The notes beneath the pieces were generated by a model. That model had not been told where the DNA came from and did no database searches. It saw only the letters and a program-made list of their open reading frames with translations. The position numbers and the translations under genes are program-made. From Escherichia phage N4, in the sequence record NC_008720.1: a DNA stretch of 64,000 bases; one strand, given 5' to 3'. This document shows positions 8,264-20,538 of the stretch, piece after piece. Numbering within the stretch: position 1 is the stretch's first letter; each line of letters starts with the position of its first letter.

Positions 8264-9092
8264 GTACATTGCAGTAGCAATTGCAGGGCTAATCATTGCT
8301 CTAAGTTTAACGAGCTGCTATGACCGAGTTGAACCAGGTAATGTAGGTATTATCGTTAACCGTCTCGGTGAAGATAAAGGCGTGGAAAATGAGGTTAAAG
8401 GTGTAGGCCGTTACTGGCTCACTTGGAATGAAGAACTTTATACATTCCCGACCTTTAAGCAGATGAAGACCTATGATGGTCTGTTCTACTTCCAACTGTC
8501 TGATGGTACTCAGATAGGCCACCAGATGGCTATCAGCTATAAAGTAAATCCTACTAAGGTAACTAATATCTTCCAGACGTATCATAAGGGAGTTAATGAA
8601 ATTACCGAACAGGATTTACGCCAACGTATTGCTGATGTACTTAACAGGCAGGGTAACCTGATTAACACCGATACATTTATTGATGGTGGTAAATCTAAGT
8701 TACTGGATAGTGTCACGGACACAATCCGTAAAGAGATGGAACCAGTGGGGATTGATATTATTGCTATCTCCTGGATTGGTGCTCCTGAATACCCTGATAA
8801 CGTTAAACGTGCCATTAATGCCAAAGTAGAAGCTACTCAGAAAACTCTGCAACGTGAGCAAGAGATTCAGCAACGCGTAGCTGAAGCTAATATGGAACGT
8901 GAACAAGCTAAGGGTGTAGCAGATGCTATTCTGATTAAGGCTAAAGCAGAGGCTGATGCTATTCGTTTACGTGGTGAAGCACTCACCGAGAACCCAAATG
9001 TAATGCAACTGGAAGCCATTAATAAGTGGAATGGTACATTACCTACCACAATGATTCCTGGGGCTACTACACCTTTCGTTAATGTGAAATAA
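8256..9092 (+). CDS. SPFH/band-7 (prohibitin/HflK-like) lipoprotein (278 aa)
   Basis: N-terminal signal with lipobox-like LTSC; VEPGNVGIIVNRLG SPFH-type core; C-terminal coiled coil (EATQKTLQREQEIQQRVAEANMEREQAKG). Confidence 0.6.
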   Translation: MYKYIAVAIAGLIIALSLTSCYDRVEPGNVGIIVNRLGEDKGVENEVKGVGRYWLTWNEELYTFPTFKQMKTYDGLFYFQLSDGTQIGHQMAISYKVNPTKVTNIFQTYHKGVNEITEQDLRQRIADVLNRQGNLINTDTFIDGGKSKLLDSVTDTIRKEMEPVGIDIIAISWIGAPEYPDNVKRAINAKVEATQKTLQREQEIQQRVAEANMEREQAKGVADAILIKAKAEADAIRLRGEALTENPNVMQLEAINKWNGTLPTTMIPGATTPFVNVK

Positions 9093-9099
9093 CTAAGCA

Positions 9100-9128
9100 A
9101 ACCCACCATTACGGTGGGTTTATTTTTT
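9100..9128 (+). terminator. Rho-independent terminator
   Basis: Stem AACCCACC/GGTGGGTT followed by TATTTTTTG. Confidence 0.75.
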
Positions 9129-9154
9129 GAAGTTATCTAACACCGGGTATTCCT

Positions 9155-9379
9155 ATGAAAGTAAATGTTTTACGTCGTAAGAAAGTTCCTTTCTTTCAAA
9201 TCAATTGTGGTTCATGTTTTCAACACGATGATGACTACTATATGAAGTGTAGTTATCAATCTAAAGAACACTTCTATGGTGTGAATTTACAAACAGGTCA
9301 TCTGTTCACATTTGATAATAATGACTTTGTTTATCCTGTGACTTTAGAAGCATGTATTCCTGACCCACTTAATAAATAG
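9155..9379 (+). CDS. Hypothetical Cys-containing protein (74 aa)
   Basis: ORF track. Confidence 0.45.
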   Translation: MKVNVLRRKKVPFFQINCGSCFQHDDDYYMKCSYQSKEHFYGVNLQTGHLFTFDNNDFVYPVTLEACIPDPLNK

Positions 9380-9380
9380 T

Positions 9381-9737
9381 ATGGCTCAAGAAAAGAATCG
9401 TCGTCAGACACTTATCGAACGTATTCAGGCCAGAATCAAATTACAGGACTTAGGCTATACCGTTAATGGTCAGCCTAGTCTCTGTCACATCTGGACTGGT
9501 TCACATTCAGGTAATGGACGTGGTGGGCAATATGGCAGGATTTCCGTGAATGGAGTTACCTCTGCAACTCACATTATTGCCTATACCCATTATCATGGTT
9601 ATATCCCCAATAAGATGCAAGTAGACCATCTCTGTAATAATCGTCTGTGCTGTAATCCTGAACATCTTGAATTGGTTACTCACCAAGAGAACCAGAGAAG
9701 AAGGGCTAAGCGTTCTAAATCTAAAGGAAATAAATAA
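9381..9737 (+). CDS. HNH homing endonuclease (118 aa)
   Basis: CHIWTGSHSGNGRGGQYGRISVNG...HIIAY...VDHLCNNRLCCNPEHLELVTHQENQ, a typical HNH_3 signature. Confidence 0.75.
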   Translation: MAQEKNRRQTLIERIQARIKLQDLGYTVNGQPSLCHIWTGSHSGNGRGGQYGRISVNGVTSATHIIAYTHYHGYIPNKMQVDHLCNNRLCCNPEHLELVTHQENQRRRAKRSKSKGNK

Positions 9738-9908
9738 ATGATTAAAAAACTTATTTGTAAACTTATTGCAGCAATCTTAATTAGTATTATTGGTATTGCA
9801 TGGGTAGTTTCTACTCCAGATAACGTTATGCAACAACTTTATTATGCTGTGTATACATCAACCTCTTTTGTTTGGGTTTATGTAATGTACCGTATTTGCA
9901 GCGACTAA
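9738..9908 (+). CDS. Small membrane protein (56 aa, below ORF-track cutoff)
   Basis: ATG directly after the HNH stop; two hydrophobic segments. Confidence 0.35.
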   Translation: MIKKLICKLIAAILISIIGIAWVVSTPDNVMQQLYYAVYTSTSFVWVYVMYRICSD

Positions 9909-9937
9909 TACTTAATATAGCTTAACTGGAGAGTAAA

Positions 9938-10996
9938 ATGGCTAGTATTGATTCTATTGCCGTATGTAATCCACGGCAGGTACGTAAATTTGTTGAACAC
10001 TGTATCCGTTCAGGATTGGTTCCATTTATCACTTCATCCCCTGGCATGGGTAAATCTGCAATTGTTCATCAGATTGCAGAAGACTTTGGCCTGAAACTGA
10101 TTGACCATCGTCTGTCTACTTCAGCACCAGAAGACCTGTCAGGTCTGCCTCGTTTTAAAGAGAATGGCCGTGCTGAATTTGCCCCATTTGATGAGCTATT
10201 CCCACTGGAAGGGGATGCTGTACCTGAAGGGTTTAATGGCTGGCTTCTCTTTCTCGATGAGTTTAACTCTGCTCGTAAAGAGATTCAGGCTGCTGCTTAT
10301 AAACTGGTACTCGACCGCATGACTGGTCAAAAAAAACTGCATCCTTATGTAGCTATCATATGTGCTGGTAACAAAGCAACTGACCGTGCCATTACTAACA
10401 ACCTGTCTACAGCTATGCAATCACGTCTTATTCATCTGGAAATGGAGACTGATTTTGATGTCTTCATGGAAGATGTAGCGATTCCTAACAAATGGGATGA
10501 ACGTGTAATTGCATTCCTGAATGCTAACCCAAATAAACTGAATGATTTTGAACCAGACCATCAAGAGAAGACTTTTTGTTGTTCTCGTACATGGGAGTTC
10601 GTTAACAAGATTGTTTCCATTCTCCCGCCAGGACCAATTGATAGTGAAATGACTCTGCTGTTAGCAGGCACTATCACTTCTGGTGTAGCAACATCATTCG
10701 TTCAGTTTACTCAGGTCTATAGCAACATGGTGTCTTTGAATGAGATTTTAGATAATCCTAAGAAAGCTCGTATGCCTGAAGACAATAACCTGTTGTGGGC
10801 TGTAGTCACTTCACTAATTAACAATACTGACGAAGATAATCATTCGAAAATCTTTGATTATGTTGAACGTATGCCATTTACGTTCAAGGTTTTGTACTAC
10901 CGTTCCGTAGGTAGTCTGGTTCCAGCTTTGGTTAAATTACCGAACTGGCGTGTTGCTGCAATCACATTATCTAAATACGTTCATGGTTCCAATTAA
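9938..10996 (+). CDS. MoxR-like AAA+ ATPase (352 aa)
   Basis: Walker A SPGMGKSA, Walker B LLFLDEF; partnered with the downstream vWA protein. Confidence 0.8.
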   Translation: MASIDSIAVCNPRQVRKFVEHCIRSGLVPFITSSPGMGKSAIVHQIAEDFGLKLIDHRLSTSAPEDLSGLPRFKENGRAEFAPFDELFPLEGDAVPEGFNGWLLFLDEFNSARKEIQAAAYKLVLDRMTGQKKLHPYVAIICAGNKATDRAITNNLSTAMQSRLIHLEMETDFDVFMEDVAIPNKWDERVIAFLNANPNKLNDFEPDHQEKTFCCSRTWEFVNKIVSILPPGPIDSEMTLLLAGTITSGVATSFVQFTQVYSNMVSLNEILDNPKKARMPEDNNLLWAVVTSLINNTDEDNHSKIFDYVERMPFTFKVLYYRSVGSLVPALVKLPNWRVAAITLSKYVHGSN

Positions 10997-11162
10997 CAAA
11001 AAGGGAGTTACAGACCTCCTGTATGTTGCTGGCTTTAACGGTAAAGAAATTACCGTATATGCCCCAAGTCTGGCTGCTGCTAAACAAAAGGCAGTTGAAT
11101 ACTTTCGTCCAAAGAAACGTGTAGCCCATACCATTTGGGTTCATCTCGCAGAGGAAAACTGA
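10983..11162 (+). CDS. Small hypothetical protein (59 aa)
   Basis: ORF in the gap between the AAA+ and vWA genes; start uncertain (track start 10950). Confidence 0.3.
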   Translation: MVPINKKGVTDLLYVAGFNGKEITVYAPSLAAAKQKAVEYFRPKKRVAHTIWVHLAEEN

Positions 11163-11163
11163 T

Positions 11164-12306
11164 ATGTCCATAACAGATGCTCAATTAACCCGTGAATATG
11201 ACAGATGTCAGGCTAAAGCCTTTATGGGCAAAACTGCTGCATTCTTTGGTTCACTGTTATGTTCTCTGAAGTTCCGTTGGGTAAAAGATGGCTGTGATAC
11301 AGCACAAACCGATGGTGAGCATCTCGAATGGAATCCTGATTGGTTTGAGAGTCTATTACCTGAATCTCGTGTAACAGTACTCATGCATGAACTATGGCAT
11401 GTCGGCTTACTGCATTCTGTTCGTATGGGTTCTCGTGACCCAGAAGTATGGAATTATGCCTGTGATATTTATATCAACAATCAGCTTATTCAGGATGGCC
11501 ACAGCTTTATAGGAATCGAAAATTGCTGGAAAGACCCTAAGTATGCTGGTTGGGCTGAAGAACAAATCTATGATGACCTCATGAGCAAACAGATACGTCC
11601 TCCTAAAGCATTTGGTGCTTTTGGGACTGGCTCAGGTGGTGACATGAAACCTTCCACTTCGAAGGCTAGTCAGGTGAATATTGTCAATAATGTAGTAAGA
11701 GCCATGCACCAACAGAAACTATCTGGTGGTTCTTTGCCTGGGGTATTACCTGGAAAAATGGAAGAAGTTATTACTCAATTCCTGAAACCAGTAGTACCGT
11801 GGCAGGTTTTACTTGAACGCTTCTTCAATGACCTGCAAGAAACTTACTACTCATGGCAACGGCCTAATCGTAGATACCCTGATATGTACCTACCATCTCC
11901 TATGGATGATGACGGTAGACTGGAACATCTGGCTTATTTCCTTGATACATCTGGCTCCATTAAACCTAAAGATGCCTTACGCTTTAGCTCTGAAGTGGCC
12001 TATGTAAAAGAGAAATATCAGCCTCAGAAGATGACTCTAGTTCAGTTCACTACAGAGATTGTAGATGAACAAGTCATTGAAGATGGTGACAAGTTTACTG
12101 ATGTCACTATCAAAGGACGGGGTGGTACTAGTCTGGTTCCTGTACGTGAATGGATTATTAAGCATAAGCCTACTGCTGCCATTATCTTTACTGACTTAGA
12201 AGTCAGGCCGATGGAACCATTGCCATTTGACATTCCTGTCATATGGGTAGTTATTCGTAACCCTGGTGCACAAGTTCCATTTGGGAAAGTTATTAACATT
12301 ACATGA
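11164..12306 (+). CDS. vWA-domain protein with N-terminal HExxH metallopeptidase-like region (380 aa)
   Basis: HELWH motif; MIDAS-like DTSGS in the C-terminal half; typical partner of MoxR-type ATPases. Confidence 0.7.
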   Translation: MSITDAQLTREYDRCQAKAFMGKTAAFFGSLLCSLKFRWVKDGCDTAQTDGEHLEWNPDWFESLLPESRVTVLMHELWHVGLLHSVRMGSRDPEVWNYACDIYINNQLIQDGHSFIGIENCWKDPKYAGWAEEQIYDDLMSKQIRPPKAFGAFGTGSGGDMKPSTSKASQVNIVNNVVRAMHQQKLSGGSLPGVLPGKMEEVITQFLKPVVPWQVLLERFFNDLQETYYSWQRPNRRYPDMYLPSPMDDDGRLEHLAYFLDTSGSIKPKDALRFSSEVAYVKEKYQPQKMTLVQFTTEIVDEQVIEDGDKFTDVTIKGRGGTSLVPVREWIIKHKPTAAIIFTDLEVRPMEPLPFDIPVIWVVIRNPGAQVPFGKVINIT

Positions 12307-12312
12307 GGTTTT

Positions 12313-12819
12313 ATGGTTGTTAATGGAAAACTATTGTTAGATGCTATGCCCATTAAGGGCATGGTCAACAGTAAACTCAGTTCAGGTGAGACTACATTTG
12401 GACTGGGAGAAGCTGGTTATGACATCCGTATTAAACAGGATGTTACCTTCTACCGGTTTCTTGGTTTGATTCCCTGCATCAAGATTAAGGATGAAGGAAA
12501 GACCAAGTGGAAGTTTGGTACTTTCACATTAGCTTCTGCAATGGAACGTTTCAATGTACCTGCTGGCCTAGTAGGTATTGTCCACGACAAATCTACATGG
12601 GCAAGGCGTACATTATCTGTATTCAATACTGTTATTGAACCAGGATGGTCTGGCTATCTGACTTTAGAACTGGTTTATCACGGTCGTAAAAAACTTCATA
12701 TCCCTGCTGGTTCAGGTATTGCTCAGGTCATCTTCCATGAGACAGTAGAGAATACTGCCTACAATGGGCGATACCAGAACCAGCCTAATCAACCCGTAGC
12801 TGCTAAGTCAGCTCGTTAA
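12313..12819 (+). CDS. dCTP deaminase/dUTPase-family protein (168 aa)
   Basis: Size and beta-rich sequence with GYDIR and GWSGYLTLEL regions; exact activity not resolvable by eye. Confidence 0.45.
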   Translation: MVVNGKLLLDAMPIKGMVNSKLSSGETTFGLGEAGYDIRIKQDVTFYRFLGLIPCIKIKDEGKTKWKFGTFTLASAMERFNVPAGLVGIVHDKSTWARRTLSVFNTVIEPGWSGYLTLELVYHGRKKLHIPAGSGIAQVIFHETVENTAYNGRYQNQPNQPVAAKSAR

Positions 12820-12832
12820 TTAAGGAAATATC

Positions 12833-13033
12833 ATGTCTATCTTTACTACTAAGGTTAATGGTCAAAAAGTTACTGTTGTTGCTCGTAACGTAGCTTACGT
12901 TACTGAAAACAGTGAAGGCCGTGGTGTAATTACTTTTACTAACGGCGATTCCATTGACACCCAGGTAGGTTATGACTCTATCCGTCGTAACGTAGCTAAA
13001 GCACTTGATGGTGCTAAAGACGCCGCAGAGTAA
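12833..13033 (+). CDS. Hypothetical protein (66 aa)
   Basis: ORF track; RBS AAGGAAATA upstream. Confidence 0.5.
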   Translation: MSIFTTKVNGQKVTVVARNVAYVTENSEGRGVITFTNGDSIDTQVGYDSIRRNVAKALDGAKDAAE

Positions 13034-13108
13034 GGTGTTTACAGTAATGGGGTTATATAGTAGCCCCATTTATGGAAATTCCTTTCTCCATTGCTTAGTC
13101 CCAACTAT

Positions 13109-13131
13109 GCCCACTTTATGTGGGCTTTTTT
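13109..13131 (+). terminator. Rho-independent terminator
   Basis: Stem GCCCAC/GTGGGC, loop TTTAT, then TTTTTT; a second hairpin without a U-tract lies upstream at about 13056-13083. Confidence 0.7.
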
Positions 13132-13146
13132 AATTAGAGACTATGT

Positions 13147-13389
13147 ATGAGCAAATTAGGTATACACGTTTACATAGATGAAGCCGAGAAGATATACCCC
13201 TATACATTATTTAGTTCCAGTGATTTACTTCAGATGAAGGTAAACTCCATTATCGTAAACTACTGGTATAACGATAAGAATTGGGATTACTGGGCTGCAC
13301 GACAGAAGAGTAAGAACAAGAAAGATATATTCAAAAGCAAATCAACTCCACACATGTTTCCTTGGTATCACAGAAACCGGAGATATTGA
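13147..13389 (+). CDS. Hypothetical protein (80 aa)
   Basis: ORF track. Confidence 0.45.
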   Translation: MSKLGIHVYIDEAEKIYPYTLFSSSDLLQMKVNSIIVNYWYNDKNWDYWAARQKSKNKKDIFKSKSTPHMFPWYHRNRRY

Positions 13390-13850
13390 TGACAAGAATA
13401 CCATTTTTAAAACCCAGAAAACGAACACCAAAGCTGTATCAAAAGACTACAGAAGACGGTTTAGCCTTGAACCAGAAAGCTATTAAGGCTGTTAGTATAC
13501 TGGTTCAAGGTAAACAGGATGCTGTTGCTTTACGTCTTGTTGTTGAGCAAATCTTAGTTGCTCTGACACTGGCTCAGGTAGCTAAACAAGAAGGTAAACA
13601 AGAAACCTGTAAAACAGCATTAGGTGCTTTGTACTGGTTGTATAAAGACCTTGCTGACAACTTTGAAATGTCTATGGATAAGTGGCAGGGTATTTCTTGT
13701 GTACTTGCTCTTAGAGAAGGACAGGAATTACTGTCTACTCTACCAAAAGCAGAATTTAAACTAGCCTACACTGGAGCACATAAGATTGTTCTTGGTTCCA
13801 GTAAGGACATCTTTAACCACCTTAAGCTATTCAAGGCTTTCTATGATTAA
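13389..13850 (+). CDS. Hypothetical protein (153 aa)
   Basis: ATG at 13389 overlapping the upstream stop (TGATG); track start 13362 is a TTG. Confidence 0.5.
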   Translation: MTRIPFLKPRKRTPKLYQKTTEDGLALNQKAIKAVSILVQGKQDAVALRLVVEQILVALTLAQVAKQEGKQETCKTALGALYWLYKDLADNFEMSMDKWQGISCVLALREGQELLSTLPKAEFKLAYTGAHKIVLGSSKDIFNHLKLFKAFYD

Positions 13851-14784
13851 TGCAAAAATCCTCGCTGATAGTATTACTCTTTCTGGTGACCGCCTGGTAA
13901 CAATGGAACTGGTTTATCCACGCTTCATTCATTCAGAATTTATGACTCACCGAGCACTTAATCGTAATGCTTCCAGTAGTCGTGCTATTCCTACCCAACG
14001 CCTTATTGAGCAAGTTCGTAATGAACCAGTAATGCCGGTACATTGGGGTAAGAACCAGAAAGGAATGCAGGCAAGTGAAGAACTCACTCCTATGGAAATT
14101 AAAGATGCTGAGTTCATTTGGGAAAATGCTGCCTCTGCCGCTGCTGTGTATGCTGAACAACTTCGTCGTGGACAAGTACATAAGCAGATTGTTAATCGTA
14201 TTCTGGAACCATTCACGCATATCCGTGTAGTAGTGACAGCTACTCAATGGAATAACTTCTTTGGTTTACGCATTCATCCTGATGCTCAACCAGAGATTTG
14301 TGAATTGGCTACTAAGATGAAGGAACAGTATGACCAATCAAAACCCCGTACCCTGTTGGCTGGGGAATGGCATTTGCCGTACATTACTAATAGTGATTAT
14401 CTCGATGCTTATGATTATTGCAAACATCAACGAATTACTCGTGATGAACCAAGTAGTGATGAGATTAATTGCCTGTTAGTAAAAATCTCTGCTGCTCGTT
14501 GTGCCCGTGCTTCCTATAACAACTTTAAAGGTACTCCTTCTACTATCGAAGAAGACCTGCGTTTGTTCTCTAAATTGGTTGAAAGTAAGCCTGTTCACGC
14601 AAGTCCTACCGAACATCAAGCAACTCCTCAACATGTAATGAGTAAAGGCTTAAATGAGCCTACTGACCCATCTACATGGGAAGATGGCATTAGCCACATG
14701 GACAGAGATTTACGTCTATACTCAGGTAATCTGTGTGGCTGGATTCAATTCCGTAAGCTGCTTGCAGATGAATGCATCCACTAA
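13843..14784 (+). CDS. thyX: Flavin-dependent thymidylate synthase ThyX (313 aa)
   Basis: ThyX signature region HSEFMTHRALNRNASSSRAIP (RHR...S motif); ATG at 13843. Confidence 0.8.
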   Translation: MINAKILADSITLSGDRLVTMELVYPRFIHSEFMTHRALNRNASSSRAIPTQRLIEQVRNEPVMPVHWGKNQKGMQASEELTPMEIKDAEFIWENAASAAAVYAEQLRRGQVHKQIVNRILEPFTHIRVVVTATQWNNFFGLRIHPDAQPEICELATKMKEQYDQSKPRTLLAGEWHLPYITNSDYLDAYDYCKHQRITRDEPSSDEINCLLVKISAARCARASYNNFKGTPSTIEEDLRLFSKLVESKPVHASPTEHQATPQHVMSKGLNEPTDPSTWEDGISHMDRDLRLYSGNLCGWIQFRKLLADECIH

Positions 14785-14829
14785 GTAGGTCTTTTGTGGG
14801 TGTAGACCACTCATAATAAACTCCGCTAT

Positions 14830-14857
14830 TTGCCTCCTACATGGAGGCAATTTTTTT
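14830..14857 (+). terminator. Rho-independent terminator
   Basis: Stem TTGCCTCC/GGAGGCAA, loop TACAT, then TTTTTTT. Confidence 0.8.
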
Positions 14858-14881
14858 GATTCCATGTACATAGGAGGCCAT

Positions 14882-15115
14882 ATGGCTAAACCACGTAAAT
14901 TCCGTATTAAGGATAAGCCTGTAATGGGTAGTGCTGCTGGTCAGTCACATGAGAAAGGAGACATTGTTTATGAATGCCTTCAGTATGATTACGGCGTTGC
15001 TCATGATGACACTCGTGCTACTGGTGTCCCACATACCTCAGTAACTCTTGAGAAAGATGGTAGCTACCCATTCTTCACTGTTCCTACTCATAACCTGGAA
15101 GAAATTCATGATTGA
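14882..15115 (+). CDS. Hypothetical protein (77 aa)
   Basis: ATG at 14882 with AGGAGG RBS. Confidence 0.5.
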   Translation: MAKPRKFRIKDKPVMGSAAGQSHEKGDIVYECLQYDYGVAHDDTRATGVPHTSVTLEKDGSYPFFTVPTHNLEEIHD

Positions 15116-15434
15116 CCCAAATATCATCCATGCCAAAACAGGCGAATCCCATAAGCTGTCTGAATATTCCAAAGTAGAAGATATTGCAGTTTGTCCTGCA
15201 AATATTGCTTCTCTTTGCATCTGTATTGCAGAGCTATCTAAAGAACGCCAACTATGGCTATCTCCTAATAAAACAATGGTTCAGGCAGGTCTGGCAGAAG
15301 TACAACGTATGCTGGATGAATGGTCTGAAGACCAGATGTTCATTGATGGCAATGCAGAAGCAATAACCGATGACATGGCCTCTGATATGGCTGTGTTTGT
15401 ATTACAAGCAATGGCTGAAAAGCGTAGTAGTTAA
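15108..15434 (+). CDS. Hypothetical protein (108 aa)
   Basis: ATG at 15108 overlapping the upstream stop. Confidence 0.45.
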   Translation: MIDPNIIHAKTGESHKLSEYSKVEDIAVCPANIASLCICIAELSKERQLWLSPNKTMVQAGLAEVQRMLDEWSEDQMFIDGNAEAITDDMASDMAVFVLQAMAEKRSS

Positions 15435-15459
15435 TTAATAATTTACTGGAGAAAATTCG

Positions 15460-17985
15460 ATGCAAGTAGCTGACTCTACTGAACTGACCACATCAGCAAC
15501 GTTGGGTGCTCAAGATGCTATGGCCTTCGGTATTTCTGAAGACCCAGCATTCTTCCAAATACTCAGTGCTAACCTCTATTCTAATCAGAAACTGGCAATG
15601 GTACGTGAGACATTGTGCAATAGCTGGGATGCTCATATTGAGGGGAATAAAACAGATATTCCTATCCATGTAACCATTGATAAAGATGGTTTCCTTATCT
15701 TCCGTGACTATGGTTCTGGTATTCCTAAAGATAAGATTCAAGAGGTCTATGGGGTATATGGTGCATCTACCAAGAAAGCTAATACTGCTTCCACTGGTGG
15801 CTTTGGCTTAGGATGTAAATCCCCTATGGCCTATACAGACAGTTTTACTGTCACATCTATGTGTGACGGAACCAAGACTGTCTATCACATTGCTAAATCT
15901 TCTGTTGAGACTAACGGTAAACCAGGGATTATTCCTATCGTTAGCGTACCTACTGAAGAATCTGGGCTTGAAGTTAAAATTCAGCTTCAGTCAGAAGATA
16001 TTTTAGAAATTGATTCATATATTCGAGCCATTGTATTACATGGTGAGATTAAATGTATTTACTGCAATCAGTATACAGGACCAAATACAGTAGAATTACT
16101 GCCTGTACTGGGTATGTCTTTTGAACCAGGTAGCTATAACCTAGACCATAGCACATGGCATAAATATTACATGGGCGGTCATTCAATATTTATCCGTTAT
16201 GGTAATGTTATGTATCCTGCTTTGGATACTCCTGCTACGCATGAAGCATTAAAACTGGTTAAACAGTTTATGCAGGTTATTAACTGTAGCCGTATCGTTG
16301 TTCAAGCTGCTCCATCATCACTAGCTGTAGCACCTAGCCGTGAAACATTGTCATCTCAAAAAATGACCGAAGACGGTATCGTAAATTTGGCTGTAGCTTT
16401 AGTAGATAAAATGGAAGCAGATATTAAAGCCCGTCTTCCAAATGCTATTGAGTATATTGGGAAAGCTATTAAAGAATATAGCCCTCACCGTTTTGAGGTA
16501 AATAGTTATTTGCCTTACACCAATTTAGTGCCTGATGTTATTGTCAGTCGTTATATGTCTTCTACTTTATTCAGTAAGCAATATGCTCACCTGTGTAAGA
16601 AATGGGGAAATATGGAGATTGACCGTCAACTTGAACATCCTGCACTGGCTCATTTCTCTGGTTCTCAAAAAGCCCATCTCCGTAAGCATTTAAAGAGGGC
16701 TAAGGATTTACGTAATTACAGGGAATTAACTAAAGTATTTACTGATATGGCTATTAAGCCAATGTTCAAAACCTTTGCTAAATTGGGGATTACTAAAGGT
16801 ATTTCCCTATTTCATTATCAATATGGTGTTGAACTGTGGCGTAATAATATTGTTAATAGTGTCCGTAGAATACACTCATTAAACTTCATGACTTATAGTT
16901 CTAAGAAGTGCCGTGTATTTGTTACCCCACGTATTACCAATATTGAAGATAGTCTGGCTGGGTATCCCGAATTTGATAATCTTTCTACTGAGACACTGGT
17001 GAAATATAACTCAATCATTGTCAAAGTTGGAACCAAGAAAGGTGAAGCAGAAGCTATGGCCAATCTGCTCACTAAAGCAGGATACGAAGTCATTAATATG
17101 GCTGAATATCATGAATGGGATTGTATAGCTCGTAGACGTAAAGAGGAACAAGAGGCTAAATTAGCCATTTCCAAATTACAAGCTAAGAAAGCTACTAATA
17201 AGAAAAAGGTTAGTCCTAACCGTCTTATTAGTATGAATATCCTTGAAATACCAAAAGAGCATCGTAGCTATTCGAGTGAGGTATGCGGTTCTCACTACGC
17301 TTCCCGTTCTCATGACCGAATGGTTGATGTAGATACTCCCCAGTATTACATCATGCAGGAAGATATTAATAACTACACAGGAAGACTTGGTATTCTTTCT
17401 ATGTGGCAATTAACTCCTGCTACCATTAAAGATGTGACTGTTGTTTGTCGTAATAAAATTGAACGTAATAAAGCTATTAAGCGAGGTGCTGTTCATTTGG
17501 ATGAATGGACTGCTCCGTATATTGCTTCGGTTCTTACATCCAAACAATTCATTAAGTATGTCACTAAAGAACGTCAGAAAACGTTAAGTGATATTGGTAT
17601 TTACTCCAAACACCTCAGATTACTGAGAGAACTGGATATTACATACGCCCCATTGAAAGGTCTGCGTTATGACCCAGAACTGGAGAATGCTTATCTCTTC
17701 TTACAAAGTAGTAGCTATCCTAAGCTACGTGCATTGTTAGGGAAGGGGCTGATTACTGAAGAACAGTATCACTTCCTTAGTGATGTTGATGTGCATTGCA
17801 AGACTTTCAGTAAGTACTCGGAACTTCGTAGGATACCGAAGATGTTCCTCGATATTGATGCTGGGGGTTATATGTTGGCTGCATGTACTGTAGACACATT
17901 GCTTCGTGAAATCGAACAATTCCCTGAATCAATCCCTGCAATCAAACTGCTTGTAAAAGCTGCTCTTAAACGGAATACAGACTGA
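15460..17985 (+). CDS. rIIA: rIIA-like protein with GHKL-type ATPase domain (841 aa)
   Basis: N-box LCNSWDAH, G1 box DYGSGIP, G2 box GGFGLGCKS near the N-terminus; size consistent with phage rIIA. Confidence 0.65.
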   Translation: MQVADSTELTTSATLGAQDAMAFGISEDPAFFQILSANLYSNQKLAMVRETLCNSWDAHIEGNKTDIPIHVTIDKDGFLIFRDYGSGIPKDKIQEVYGVYGASTKKANTASTGGFGLGCKSPMAYTDSFTVTSMCDGTKTVYHIAKSSVETNGKPGIIPIVSVPTEESGLEVKIQLQSEDILEIDSYIRAIVLHGEIKCIYCNQYTGPNTVELLPVLGMSFEPGSYNLDHSTWHKYYMGGHSIFIRYGNVMYPALDTPATHEALKLVKQFMQVINCSRIVVQAAPSSLAVAPSRETLSSQKMTEDGIVNLAVALVDKMEADIKARLPNAIEYIGKAIKEYSPHRFEVNSYLPYTNLVPDVIVSRYMSSTLFSKQYAHLCKKWGNMEIDRQLEHPALAHFSGSQKAHLRKHLKRAKDLRNYRELTKVFTDMAIKPMFKTFAKLGITKGISLFHYQYGVELWRNNIVNSVRRIHSLNFMTYSSKKCRVFVTPRITNIEDSLAGYPEFDNLSTETLVKYNSIIVKVGTKKGEAEAMANLLTKAGYEVINMAEYHEWDCIARRRKEEQEAKLAISKLQAKKATNKKKVSPNRLISMNILEIPKEHRSYSSEVCGSHYASRSHDRMVDVDTPQYYIMQEDINNYTGRLGILSMWQLTPATIKDVTVVCRNKIERNKAIKRGAVHLDEWTAPYIASVLTSKQFIKYVTKERQKTLSDIGIYSKHLRLLRELDITYAPLKGLRYDPELENAYLFLQSSSYPKLRALLGKGLITEEQYHFLSDVDVHCKTFSKYSELRRIPKMFLDIDAGGYMLAACTVDTLLREIEQFPESIPAIKLLVKAALKRNTD

Positions 17986-20075
17986 TGAAACGAAATTATC
18001 TCGCCATTATTGCCCTGTCAGTAGACAGCCGTAACCTCACCTTATGGCAACCAGATGGTTCTACTATGGTCATCCCCCAAGGGGATGCCCGTGTACCTCG
18101 TATTGTTGCTGAAGCAAAAGAAAAGAATCTTACCCCAGGTAAGATTATTGAAGTGGATGTCACTATCGAAGCTCAGATTCGTCAAGAGTTTCTAGACGCT
18201 GAACGTGATACAGGTGGCTTTGTTAAATTCTTCCGTATTACCAAGAAGAAGCTGCAAGAGTTCTTTTTGGGGGAAGAGGAAGAACAAGTCCCTCATGTAT
18301 CACCTGTAGAGTTAGGTGCTAAACCAACTGCTTTCAATGCTTTTATTGCTAATGCTGTAGGCAAAACTCTTGCTGTACAACATGCATCATTAAAAGCACC
18401 TGAACCAGAAATGACAGTTACTCATGAGCGTTTTTACGGTAACTATGCTGTATGGATTACAGATGTAGACCCACGGAATCATCGTATTGAGGTTATTCAT
18501 GTTATCCGTGAAATCTCAGGAAGAACCAGTGAATATGTCAATAACCTGCTGGCTCAACCAACTCCATTCAAAGTGTTTGATTGGCTCACAGAGACTCAGG
18601 CTAAAGAATTTGTAAGACGTCTGAATAACACTCAGGGTGTTATCTCTGTCTATAACAAACTGGAAGACGGTATTCCTGCTAAGGTTGCCGTGAAAGCTAC
18701 AGAGCCAACCAATAAAGAAAAGCTGGAAGCTGCATCATCTAAGCTGAAAGCTATGGGTGCTGTCGCTACTGATGCTTACGAGTTTCATACTGACTTGAAT
18801 GAGAATGAAGAGACTATTGTAGCTGTAGTAAATGATAAGGTGGTTCCTGATGTTCAGAACCTACATCGTCATATCCGTCAATCTGCAAATTTGAAAGACT
18901 ATAAAGGCTTTACTAAGTTTCTTGAACGCCTGTCTACTGTAATTGATAAACGTCGTCACTCTGTTGAAGACCTGATGAAGTTTATGGAAAAAGGTGACCT
19001 GCCAATTGCAGATGATGGCTCCATTGTTATCTTCAAACGTCTGGAAAGCAAAGACAATCCTGAACATCTTAAAGATGTAATGGATGATGTATTTGTTGAT
19101 TGCCATTCTAAGAAGATTGAGCAATGCGTTGGTATGCGTGTAATGGTTAGAGAAAGCCTTGTAGACCAGAACCGTCGTAAAGACTGTTCTCATGGTTTGC
19201 ACGTAGCTTCTCTGCAATACATTCGTAATTTCTCAGGCAACGTAACCATTATTGGTAAAGTTGCTCCAGAGGATGTATTTGCAGTACCAGAATACGATGT
19301 TACTAAGATGCGTGTATCTGCTTATCACATCATTACCAAGCTACCTGACGCTATTCGTGACCATGTTAATAATGGCAATCCAATCTCCACCATTGAGGGT
19401 GGTACGGAAATTCTGAACATGGTTCTCAGTGGTAATCACCCTGAACCTTCTCGTCAGGTACTGGTTGGTGGTCATTATGGAACCAATCTGACTTATTCAG
19501 AACTCACCCGTAATTATCTGGATGATGTGGAAGACATCGTTATTCCAGATGAACCAGTAATTAAGAAAACTGCCTTGAATATGGAAGAGAGCTTTACGGC
19601 AACTAATCCTAAAGCCGAACCAGTGAAGGCAACGGATGTTAAACCTATTAAGAAGACTAAGATGGAAATTCTTAAAGACCTTTGGAACCAGTTCCTGAAA
19701 GCAGAGACTTCTAATGAAGCTATTACGCTGGCTGATGAAATCATTGCTGCTAAGGGCAAATGTAAGAAGTCATGGGCTTCTTTAGGCTTCAGTGGTGACA
19801 TGGTTCAGAAACTGATTGATGCTCGTGCTAATAAGCCTAAGCCAGAAAAAGCAGTCAAACAGGATAAAACTGTTGCACCTAAGAAAACTACAGTCACTCG
19901 TAGTCGGAATGCTGATGTTATTCGTAGTTATCTGAATGACAAAGGTATGTCTGATTACTGTAAAGCTCATGCCATTCACGATGTGAAACGTGCTGCTAAG
20001 AAGTCTTATGCTGCACTGGGTCTGACTCCTGAAGAATGCAGCCAAATTGATAAACTGAAGCATCATCTGAAGTAA
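17985..20075 (+). CDS. rIIB-like protein (696 aa)
   Basis: Immediately follows and is start/stop-coupled to the rIIA-like gene; assignment by gene order only. Confidence 0.4.
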   Translation: MKRNYLAIIALSVDSRNLTLWQPDGSTMVIPQGDARVPRIVAEAKEKNLTPGKIIEVDVTIEAQIRQEFLDAERDTGGFVKFFRITKKKLQEFFLGEEEEQVPHVSPVELGAKPTAFNAFIANAVGKTLAVQHASLKAPEPEMTVTHERFYGNYAVWITDVDPRNHRIEVIHVIREISGRTSEYVNNLLAQPTPFKVFDWLTETQAKEFVRRLNNTQGVISVYNKLEDGIPAKVAVKATEPTNKEKLEAASSKLKAMGAVATDAYEFHTDLNENEETIVAVVNDKVVPDVQNLHRHIRQSANLKDYKGFTKFLERLSTVIDKRRHSVEDLMKFMEKGDLPIADDGSIVIFKRLESKDNPEHLKDVMDDVFVDCHSKKIEQCVGMRVMVRESLVDQNRRKDCSHGLHVASLQYIRNFSGNVTIIGKVAPEDVFAVPEYDVTKMRVSAYHIITKLPDAIRDHVNNGNPISTIEGGTEILNMVLSGNHPEPSRQVLVGGHYGTNLTYSELTRNYLDDVEDIVIPDEPVIKKTALNMEESFTATNPKAEPVKATDVKPIKKTKMEILKDLWNQFLKAETSNEAITLADEIIAAKGKCKKSWASLGFSGDMVQKLIDARANKPKPEKAVKQDKTVAPKKTTVTRSRNADVIRSYLNDKGMSDYCKAHAIHDVKRAAKKSYAALGLTPEECSQIDKLKHHLK

Positions 20076-20142
20076 GTAGGTTAACTATTCAAGTAGCTCC
20101 AGTTGAAATATACTGGAGCTATCTTTGAAGAGGATACATACT

Positions 20143-20538
20143 ATGGCCAAAGTTTATCGTGCTAACCGTAAAGCCTATGATGACGATATTATTCGTATGA
20201 ATGCAGTCGGTTTATCATTGGGAACCATTGCTAAAACATTAGGTGTTCACCCCACTACAGTTACCTTACGATTACGCTCTCTTGGTATTGAACCAGCCGA
20301 CACACGTCGAACATTTATGGAGAACGTATTAGCACCATTACCTACTCACGTAGCTGATTGGTTATCGGAACAAGTAGGACCAAAGTATGAGATTCGACAA
20401 TACGTTCGAGACTTATTACTGGAAGCCTACAATAATCGTCATAATCATAAGGAAACTGCCCATGAACGATTCCTCAAAAGATACGTTGGTACAAACCCAG
20501 AACTGGTTTCTGAAGGCAGTACCCAACCCAACGAGTAA
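20143..20538 (+). CDS. Putative helix-turn-helix DNA-binding protein (131 aa)
   Basis: GLSLGTIAKTLGVHPTTVTLRLRSLG resembles an HTH; ATG at 20143 with GAGGAT RBS. Confidence 0.45.
   Translation: MAKVYRANRKAYDDDIIRMNAVGLSLGTIAKTLGVHPTTVTLRLRSLGIEPADTRRTFMENVLAPLPTHVADWLSEQVGPKYEIRQYVRDLLLEAYNNRHNHKETAHERFLKRYVGTNPELVSEGSTQPNE

Follow-up and report, generated by a model that had tools for sequence, protein, structure and literature searches.

The gp24 and gp25 genes of Escherichia phage N4 probably encode a two-component, ATP-driven machine of the MoxR/vWA type, in which an AAA+ ATPase and a partner combining a metallopeptidase domain with a vWA-like domain would grip, remodel, and cut a client protein. 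Combined with a client that is not part of the virion, this is our best explanation of the data as a whole, and here our confidence is evenly divided. The window analyzed is a stretch of 64,000 nucleotides of sequence record NC_008720.1. Its interval 9938-12306 contains two open reading frames (ORFs) on the plus strand, the ATPase gene at 9938-10996 (352 aa) and the vWA protein gene at 11164-12306 (380 aa), exactly where the original prediction, made from the sequence alone, had placed them. On sequence grounds, these ORFs are almost certainly gp24 and gp25 of N4 or alleles that cannot be told apart from them. Nucleotides 3164-20303 of the window match the IMG/VR contig IMGVR_UViG_641201066_000001 base for base, and the GC content of 41% agrees with that of N4. 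The interval 9938-12306 shows about 98% identity with the corresponding region of Enquatrovirus N4 phages, among them AlfredRasser/Bas69, PMBT57, and OLB145, and the same two genes are annotated as gp24 and gp25 in vB_Eco_Jura. The suggestion that a chaperone-like ATPase and a vWA adaptor form a metallopeptidase-linked remodeling module appears sound in the light of the domain content, the modeled fold, and the linkage of the genes.

The entire length of gp25 is accounted for by two Pfam domains in N-to-C order, as in the COG3864-type "predicted metal-dependent peptidase" proteins. Residues 10-245 match DUF2201_N, the "putative metallopeptidase domain" (E = 3.1e-87, 293.1 bits against a cut-off of 23.2), as had been anticipated for the N-terminal part, and residues 256-380 match DUF2201, the "VWA-like domain" (E = 1.4e-46, 158.1 bits against a cut-off of 26.4). 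The HELWH motif noticed near the N-terminus (aa 75-79, nt 11386-11400) is located on helix 66-81 of the AlphaFold model. The model of the N-terminal domain is confident and its structural matches are almost all zincin metallopeptidases, placing HExxH within a peptidase-like fold. Among the 24,077 residues that make up the window's stop-free stretches of 100 aa or more, HExxH occurs just twice. About 260 of 270 phage-type homologues of gp25 have it, and 232 of the 270 show the full catalytic and MIDAS pattern (MIDAS denoting an adhesion site that depends on metal ions); hence, the motif is not a chance occurrence.

The residues under the strongest constraint were identified by an alignment of 15 phage homologues with identity down to 25%, including those from the jumbo phages RaK2 and Deifobo, cyanophage S-TIM61, and one rV5-like phage. 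In the peptidase domain, H75, E76, H79, H84, N97, A99, D101, and N105 are invariant, and so are D261, S263, G264, S265, T322, and D344 in the MIDAS part. Two invariant residues, H84 and D101, are candidates for the third zinc ligand. Judging by its conservation, D101 may serve as the third metal ligand or as another active-site residue; together with N105, it is retained even in a bacterial clade that has no HExxH. Two metagenomic homologues (P0129 and P0132) are interrupted by inteins at an identical position, after A99 and before C100 in the N-x-A-C-D motif (window position 11460/11461). One is a mini-intein of about 149 aa and the other is about 300 aa long; both start with Cys, end with His-Asn, and are followed by a +1 Cys. 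Inteins typically home into functionally critical sites, and their precise placement in two homologues points to the importance of N-x-A-C-D.

The C-terminal part of gp25 is a compact domain of about 125 aa, compared to about 180-200 aa for the full-size vWA Rossmann-like fold. In a profile comparison, its DTSGS loop (aa 261-265), the second motif noticed originally and likewise conserved in homologues, was aligned with the MIDAS of the integrin alpha-X/alpha-M I-domains, the match covering the first beta-alpha-beta unit only (E = 4e-4). The complete MIDAS signature DxSxS...T...D (D261, S263, S265, T322, and D344) is invariant in every homologue set examined. The family is large, with 14,041 clusters at 50% identity containing a match to gp25 at E <= 1e-3.

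The same protein belongs to phrog_1314 (E = 1e-135), a family labeled "HNH endonuclease", and it could accordingly be regarded as an HNH, possibly homing, endonuclease. What speaks for this assignment is the labels alone, those of phrog_1314 and of dozens of GenBank records, including RaK2, Pylas, and Vibrio phages. However, gp25 has no match to any HNH family of Pfam, while a true, free-standing HNH endonuclease gene located just upstream of gp24 (9381-9737) scores 9e-20 with HNH_3 in the same search. Moreover, DUF2201_N and DUF2201 explain the full length of gp25, its fold is that of a zincin, and the Pylas record itself carries the note "DUF2201 metallopeptidase domain; VWA-like domain". 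Thus, the endonuclease label is refuted at the level of both sequence and fold, and the chance that it is right is negligible; it seems to have spread from the early annotation of a roseophage. A separate observation in Klebsiella phage Pylas is that, according to the record, its gp24-type ATPase gene is interrupted by an intron encoding an HNH homing endonuclease (L092:2495-4364).

The gp24 protein has the full set of AAA+ motifs (Table 1), and the residues named there as sensor 1 (N145) and arginine finger (R163) are assigned by their position in the AAA+ fold and are thus putative. R217 is likewise invariant among the 60 homologues aligned. According to the DSSP strings of its model, gp24 has a hairpin formed by strands 70-73 and 79-82, placed between beta2 and beta3, and a further strand, 132-134, precedes beta4. 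These features appear to correspond to the helix-2-insert hairpin and the pre-sensor-1 beta-hairpin of MoxR-class AAA+ proteins, and in the model residues 56-83 may be read as the helix-2 insert typical of AAA+ proteins of the MoxR, dynein, and midasin types. The nearest solved structures are the MoxR-class proteins CbbQ and NorQ. The best sequence-profile match is midasin (E = 7e-21), whose segment "RLSxxxDxxDLxG" is aligned with the conserved segment of gp24.

The original prediction of a MoxR-like ATPase therefore stands in the broad sense, given the motifs, the CbbQ and NorQ structures, and the midasin profile, but the curated MoxR models are not matched. Comparison of gp24 with these models yielded neither a Pfam AAA_3 nor an NCBIfam match, and its scores with other Pfam families are below gathering (20.9 against 21.2 for AAA; 20.4 against 22 for AAA_5). 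Because no AAA family reaches the Pfam gathering score, the term "MoxR-like" is based here on profile and structure comparison. Orthologues of gp24 from other phages and from bacteria do reach AAA_5 and weak AAA_3 scores, and the Bas69 record labels the homologue as "MoxR ATPase". Since gp24 fails the curated models, it is best described as a member of a divergent MoxR-related subfamily (AAA_5, the CbbQ/NorQ-related clade working with MIDAS partners), not as MoxR proper. Profiles were required for these comparisons: single-sequence phmmer searches of gp24 and gp25 against PDB sequences produced no meaningful match. As regards a cobaltochelatase of the CobS/CobT type, in which a CobS-like ATPase and the vWA protein CobT work with a CobN subunit, there is a weak partial match of gp24 to phrog_249, "porphyrin biosynthesis" (E = 7e-7); a peptidase fusion is not known to be a feature of CobT.

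The two genes are co-conserved in relatives. Hidden Markov models of both proteins were run on 80 IMG/VR loci retrieved with the vWA protein. The ATPase gene was found upstream on the same strand in 76 of them, and the other four, having at most 1.6 kb of contig upstream, were not evaluable. Hence, the linkage holds in 76 of 76 evaluable viral loci, and it is joined by plasmid and chromosomal examples. The distance between the genes in the IMG/VR loci ranges from 3 bp to 4.4 kb. Among individual phages, the homologues are adjacent in RaK2 and S-TIM61, four genes apart in Deifobo, and about 3.7 kb apart on opposite strands in the rV5-like phage MaxTheCat. The survey of cellular genomes was thin, covering Campylobacterota, Burkholderiaceae plasmids, and pSYSA by tblastn on plasmids and lookup of encoding contigs. 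There, the genes overlap by 4 nt on the Hydrogenimonas chromosome, are adjacent in Sulfurimonas, overlap on the Synechocystis plasmid pSYSA, and are separated by one or two genes on the conjugative plasmids of Burkholderiaceae. In tblastn searches, 678 phage records matched the vWA protein and 830 matched the ATPase, the distribution over host genera being parallel for the two. Of 50,697 deposited phage genomes, roughly 700-800 contain relatives. Some of the records have odd naming or host assignment: five named "Campylobacter phage" (A13b, A135, A112b, A140, and A12a; 135-143 kb) show almost the same identity as the rV5-like phages of E. coli.

The slot between the two genes is variable. In 81 loci, it is empty in 18, occupied by a small ORF of the phrog_19202 type in seven, and occupied by an unrelated gene of 214-271 aa in 41 marine loci. 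Because of this variation, the core module is the dyad. The small 59-aa ORF of the window (10983-11162) was considered as a core third subunit and rejected, as members of its family are found at this position in just 7 of the 81 loci; it is rather a lineage-specific passenger. The marine slot gene (L035:7288-7950 and 40 other marine N4-like IMG/VR loci), which has no counterpart in the window, shows weak, sub-threshold matches to phrog_1965 and to Pfam Nmad5, "nucleotide modification associated domain 5" (E = 1.7e-4). The idea that this gene ties the module to modification of DNA or nucleotides was dismissed: the Nmad5 score is 22 bits against a gathering score of 27, the window has no such gene, and the literature on Nmad5 mentions no ATPase or vWA partner. 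In the plasmid dyads of Burkholderia gladioli (L089:4036-8137) and Cupriavidus taiwanensis (L090:4939-8161), a conserved protein of 305-309 aa is encoded between the two genes, and in B. gladioli a DNA polymerase III beta-like gene is also found there. The plasmid slot gene of about 305 aa shows no similarity to the phage slot genes and matches no Pfam family.

Copies on mobile elements and on chromosomes differ in the peptidase motif. In all 120 Campylobacterota-type chromosomal homologues of gp25 (P0391-P0510), HExxH is replaced by N-[G/S/A]-x-x-H, with the loss of the first zinc ligand (H75) and the catalytic glutamate (E76). These proteins keep H79, D101, N105, in most cases H84, and a perfect MIDAS, and the ATPase neighbor is kept at both Campylobacterota loci inspected (L005:8999-10162 and L086:7001-8173). 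At both loci, the dyad is preceded by a gene for an LRV_2/DUF2336 repeat protein of 445-460 aa, which could be a third component or a client. The plasmid copies retain the full catalytic pattern. Plasmid dyads are found next to type IV secretion system genes on conjugative megaplasmids of Burkholderia and Cupriavidus, the clusters in B. gladioli and C. taiwanensis being directly upstream of VirB11-, VirB3-, and VirB4-like genes; the pSYSA dyad resides among toxin-antitoxin and defense-type genes. Since phage and plasmid copies keep HExxH and the Campylobacterota copies lack it, mobile elements apparently keep an active protease, whereas one long-resident cellular clade seems to have dropped proteolysis and kept the MIDAS and the ATPase.

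The genomic setting of the pair in the window is summarized in Table 1. Strong plus-strand hairpins bracket a tightly packed block in which neighboring genes either overlap or are separated by 1-29 nt. The start of the small ORF overlaps the stop of the ATPase gene by 14 nt, its end is 1 nt before the ATG of gp25, and a Shine-Dalgarno sequence GGAG precedes the ATPase ORF. On the plus strand between 9121 and 13109, no terminator of comparable strength to the bracketing hairpins was found. The two hairpins are likely the upstream and downstream limits of the unit that holds gp24 and gp25, and for this reason the pair is probably co-transcribed with its neighbors, as far as this can be judged from the DNA. 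The likely order in the unit is HNH gene, small membrane ORF, gp24, small ORF, gp25, dCTP-deaminase-like gene, and small ORF.

Table 1. Features of the gp24-gp25 region; coordinates refer to the window.
Feature	Coordinates	Strand	Evidence or remarks
gp24-type AAA+ ATPase, 352 aa, MoxR/CbbQ/NorQ-like dynein-related clade	9938..10996	+	
gp24 Walker A / P-loop SSPGMGKS, aa 33-40	10034..10057	+	G38, K39, and S40 invariant, G36 nearly so (60 homologues)
gp24 segment D56-x-R58-L-S-x3-P64-x-D66-L-x-G69-L-P71 and beta-hairpin, aa 56-83	10103..10186	+	D56, R58, P64, D66, and G69 invariant
gp24 Walker B WLLFLDE, aa 102-108	10241..10261	+	D107 and E108 invariant
gp24 sensor 1 (AGN, N145) and putative arginine finger (R163 in MQSRLI)	10364..10432	+	Both invariant (60 homologues)
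Small 59-aa gene between gp24 and gp25	10983..11162	+	phrog_19202, E = 1.5e-33; annotated in the relative Bas69
gp25-type fusion, 380 aa: N-terminal zincin-like metallopeptidase domain and C-terminal compact vWA-like/MIDAS domain	11164..12306	+	
gp25 HELWH (H75, E76, H79) and H84, predicted zinc-binding/catalytic motif HExxHxxxxH	11386..11415	+	Conservation; zincin-fold model
gp25 N97-Y-A99-C100-D101-x3-N105, helix after HExxH	11452..11478	+	N97, A99, D101, and N105 invariant
gp25 MIDAS loop 1, DTSGS (D261, S263, S265), aa 261-265	11944..11958	+	Invariant in all sets examined
gp25 MIDAS T322 (in GGT) and D344 (in FTD)	12121..12195	+	Invariant
Terminator-like hairpin and T-run	9099..9121	+	Stem of 9 bp with 5 GC pairs, then ATTTTTT
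Terminator-like hairpin and T-run	13109..13125	+	

The pair had been placed inside a replication block. Nucleotide-metabolism and helicase genes are indeed nearby, but the location is more accurately described as the early/middle-gene arm, with the late structural genes on the opposite strand. Upstream of the pair are the genes of phage RNA polymerase II (RNAP II), an SPFH protein, and the HNH endonuclease; downstream are dCTP-deaminase-like, ThyX-like, rII, and helicase genes. The SPFH/Band-7 (prohibitin-like) protein (8256-9092) has an N-terminal lipoprotein-like signal, and its gene is conserved in the position upstream of the pair among N4-type phages, Pylas showing it as well. The gene for a protein of the dCTP-deaminase/dUTPase fold (12313-12819; Pfam DCD, 8e-17) adjoins the 3' side of gp25 with a 6-nt gap and is probably co-transcribed with the pair. 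The ThyX-like ORF (13786-14784, 332 aa) looks like a divergent or extended ThyX: only residues 38-187 match the C-terminal two-thirds of Pfam Thy1 (E = 2e-10), while the match to phrog_85, "thymidylate synthase", is strong.

Terminator-like hairpins are over-represented in the region 7500-15500 of the window (15 compared to 4.5 +/- 2.2 in shuffled sequences), and strong plus-strand hairpins at 7620, 8023, 9099, 13109, and 14830 split the middle-gene arm into short units. The middle genes of N4 are transcribed by the phage RNAP II. A scan of the same region for sigma-70-like promoters, giving 14 compared to 23 expected from shuffles, was uninformative, RNAP II promoters being outside its model. 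The sign of the GC skew flips near about 34 kb, at the switch from plus-strand early/middle genes to minus-strand genes, as expected for the N4 layout.

A possible mechanism is suggested by the known MoxR systems, in which a MoxR hexamer is plugged by one vWA adaptor, the MIDAS binds acidic residues of the client, and ATP hydrolysis remodels the client (PMC9976466). By analogy with NorQ/NorD and CbbQ/CbbO, gp24 would form a hexameric AAA+ ring, and one gp25 molecule would dock on it via the vWA-like domain in a 6:1 arrangement. The metal ion at the gp25 MIDAS (D261, S263, S265, T322, and D344) would grip an acidic side chain of one specific client. ATP hydrolysis by the ring, relayed through the vWA domain, would then loosen or unfold part of the client, and the fused zincin domain (H75, E76, H79, H84, and D101) would cut the segment so exposed.

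The peptidase-like domain could instead act as a client-binding or regulatory module, the pair being a non-proteolytic maturation chaperone like NorQ/NorD, CbbQ/CbbO, or CoxD/CoxE. Its client might be, for instance, a neighboring nucleotide-metabolism enzyme requiring cofactor insertion or release of an inhibitor. This scenario, which we consider improbable, agrees with NorQ and CbbQ being the closest structures. Three further observations favor it at the expense of a cutting machine: the Campylobacterota clade works without H75 and E76; the pair is repeatedly found near dCTP-deaminase, thymidylate-synthase, or ThyX genes (N4, RaK2, S-TIM61, and roseophages); and it is apparently co-transcribed with the dCTP-deaminase-like gene. 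However, the linkage to nucleotide metabolism is absent on plasmids and in Campylobacterota, and may simply reflect the clustering of middle genes. Strong purifying selection on HExxH, H84, and D101, as seen in the alignments of phage and plasmid copies, argues for catalysis, and so does the targeting of the peptidase motif by inteins.

As for the client of the proposed grip-remodel-cut machine, we tentatively suggest an intracellular protein that is not a component of the virion and is met soon after entry, either a host protein or a middle-phase protein encoded by the element itself. Three lines of evidence point in this direction. Firstly, the pair is transcribed with the middle genes; gp24 and gp25 are middle transcripts in N4-like phages (PMC4193335, PMC2784036). 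Secondly, the pair also occurs on conjugative plasmids and on pSYSA, elements that do not form virions. Thirdly, the catalytic HExxH is kept in mobile-element copies only.

The principal competing scenario, which Iyer et al. (2021) put forward for jumbo phages on the model of the MoxR/vWA proteins of the Acidianus two-tailed virus (PMC7824862), is a chaperone and protease for virion morphogenesis, with the pair aiding head or tail assembly and the peptidase processing structural proteins. Several observations support it and weigh against a client outside the virion. The genes on either side of the pair in RaK2 and S-TIM61 include structural, "Hsp70", and Hsp20 genes; a second structural module of roseophage RPP1 is located near the gp24 and gp25 homologues; and the annotated late module of Bas69 lists neither a prohead protease nor a scaffold, which leaves room for an unconventional maturation protease. 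On the other hand, the homologues are not among the listed virion proteins of RPP1, and the jumbo and rV5-like carriers are myoviruses, which usually have a prohead protease of their own. In N4-type phages, the pair belongs to the middle-gene arm together with nucleotide-metabolism genes, opposite in strand to the late structural genes, and copies with full motifs are present on conjugative plasmids, pSYSA, and bacterial chromosomes, none of which makes virions. For these reasons, virion assembly is less likely as a general role, and we regard this scenario as unlikely.

A more specific form of the non-virion scenario is that gp24 and gp25 are an "establishment" effector common to lytic phages and conjugative plasmids, that is, a MIDAS-targeted AAA+ protease directed against a host protein. 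The target might be an immunity, stress-response, or replication-control factor attacked soon after DNA entry, and the Campylobacterota copies might be domesticated derivatives that lost proteolysis and kept remodeling alone. We put this forward as a speculative and rather doubtful possibility; if true, it would constitute a new mechanistic class of anti-host factors.

At the level of annotation, the gp24/gp25 finding is already known, because the domain families are in Pfam, the pairing in jumbo phages has been published (PMC7824862), and relatives are labeled "MoxR ATPase" and "putative metalloprotease". Added here are the contrast in HExxH between mobile and Campylobacterota copies, the inteins in NxA|CD, and the demonstration that the "HNH endonuclease" label is wrong; in practical terms, this widespread label on the gp25 family needs correcting. 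In the literature on DUF2201, on Schitoviridae and MoxR, and on N4 gp24 and gp25, no functional study was found. The pair comprises two of about 14 genes common to all N4-like phages and is also present on conjugative megaplasmids and bacterial chromosomes. It is thus of interest as a conserved and widespread core module that offers testable contrasts between mobile and chromosomal copies and between active and inactive peptidases. If the client were identified, a missing piece would be supplied in the biology of this model phage and of a large phage family with marine and therapeutic members, and it would become clear how a MoxR/vWA remodeling engine can be coupled to a protease.

Comparison with known systems starts from the N4-like phages themselves (Schitoviridae), whose 14 core genes, in listings dating from 2009-2014 onward, include gp24, described as "putative ATPase, AAA superfamily" or "unknown", and gp25, described as "vWFA domain" (PMC4193335, PMC2784036). 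Published annotations stop at "AAA", "vWFA", and "unknown", and the peptidase domain is not mentioned in them. The vWA-MoxR-VMAP ternary conflict systems (Kaur, Burroughs, Iyer, Aravind 2020) have the MoxR and vWA core in common with it, and their vWA component occasionally carries a fused metallopeptidase. However, the N4 pair has no third component of the VMAP kind and a different genomic setting, and PADLOC and NCBIfam searches with the ATPase, the small ORF, and the vWA protein gave no matches; the pair is not a ternary conflict system of this type. From the minimal zincins (the minigluzincins selecase, projannalysin, and proabylysin, as well as Wss1/Spartan and ArdC), to which it shows 9-17% identity, the peptidase domain of gp25 differs in its length of about 250 aa, extra helices, its own HExxHxxxxH...NxACDxxxN signature, and constant fusion to a vWA-like domain.

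Among remodeling ATPases, midasin (Rea1/Mdn1) is similar in combining an AAA_5-type ring with a MIDAS domain that acts on an acidic client motif, but it is one giant protein chain of eukaryotes in which six AAA modules are fused, with its own MIDAS domain and no peptidase. NorQ/NorD and CbbQ/CbbO are also encoded by adjacent gene pairs, have adaptors with a complete DxSxS-T-D MIDAS, and provide the nearest solved ATPase structures. Yet identity of the ATPases is only 16-19%, gp24 has an additional C-terminal helical region of about 110 aa, NorD and CbbO are much larger and have no peptidase domain, and their clients are metabolic enzymes, cNOR and Rubisco. The Acidianus two-tailed virus has a viral MoxR-type ATPase and a vWA protein, implicated in extracellular tail development; it is an archaeal virus, and its pair has no peptidase domain (Scheele et al. 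2011, cited in PMC7824862 and PMC7159879). Finally, a MoxR AAA+ ATPase paired with a metallopeptidase-vWA protein was described in group 2.2 jumbo phages and assigned to virion assembly or processing (Iyer et al. 2021, Viruses 13:63, PMC7824862). Both the architecture and the pairing are the same there, and the RaK2 orthologues are encoded side by side and annotated as similar to N4 Gp24. The difference is that here the pair is part of the core of podoviruses with 70-kb genomes, has middle-phase expression, and is found also on plasmids and chromosomes.

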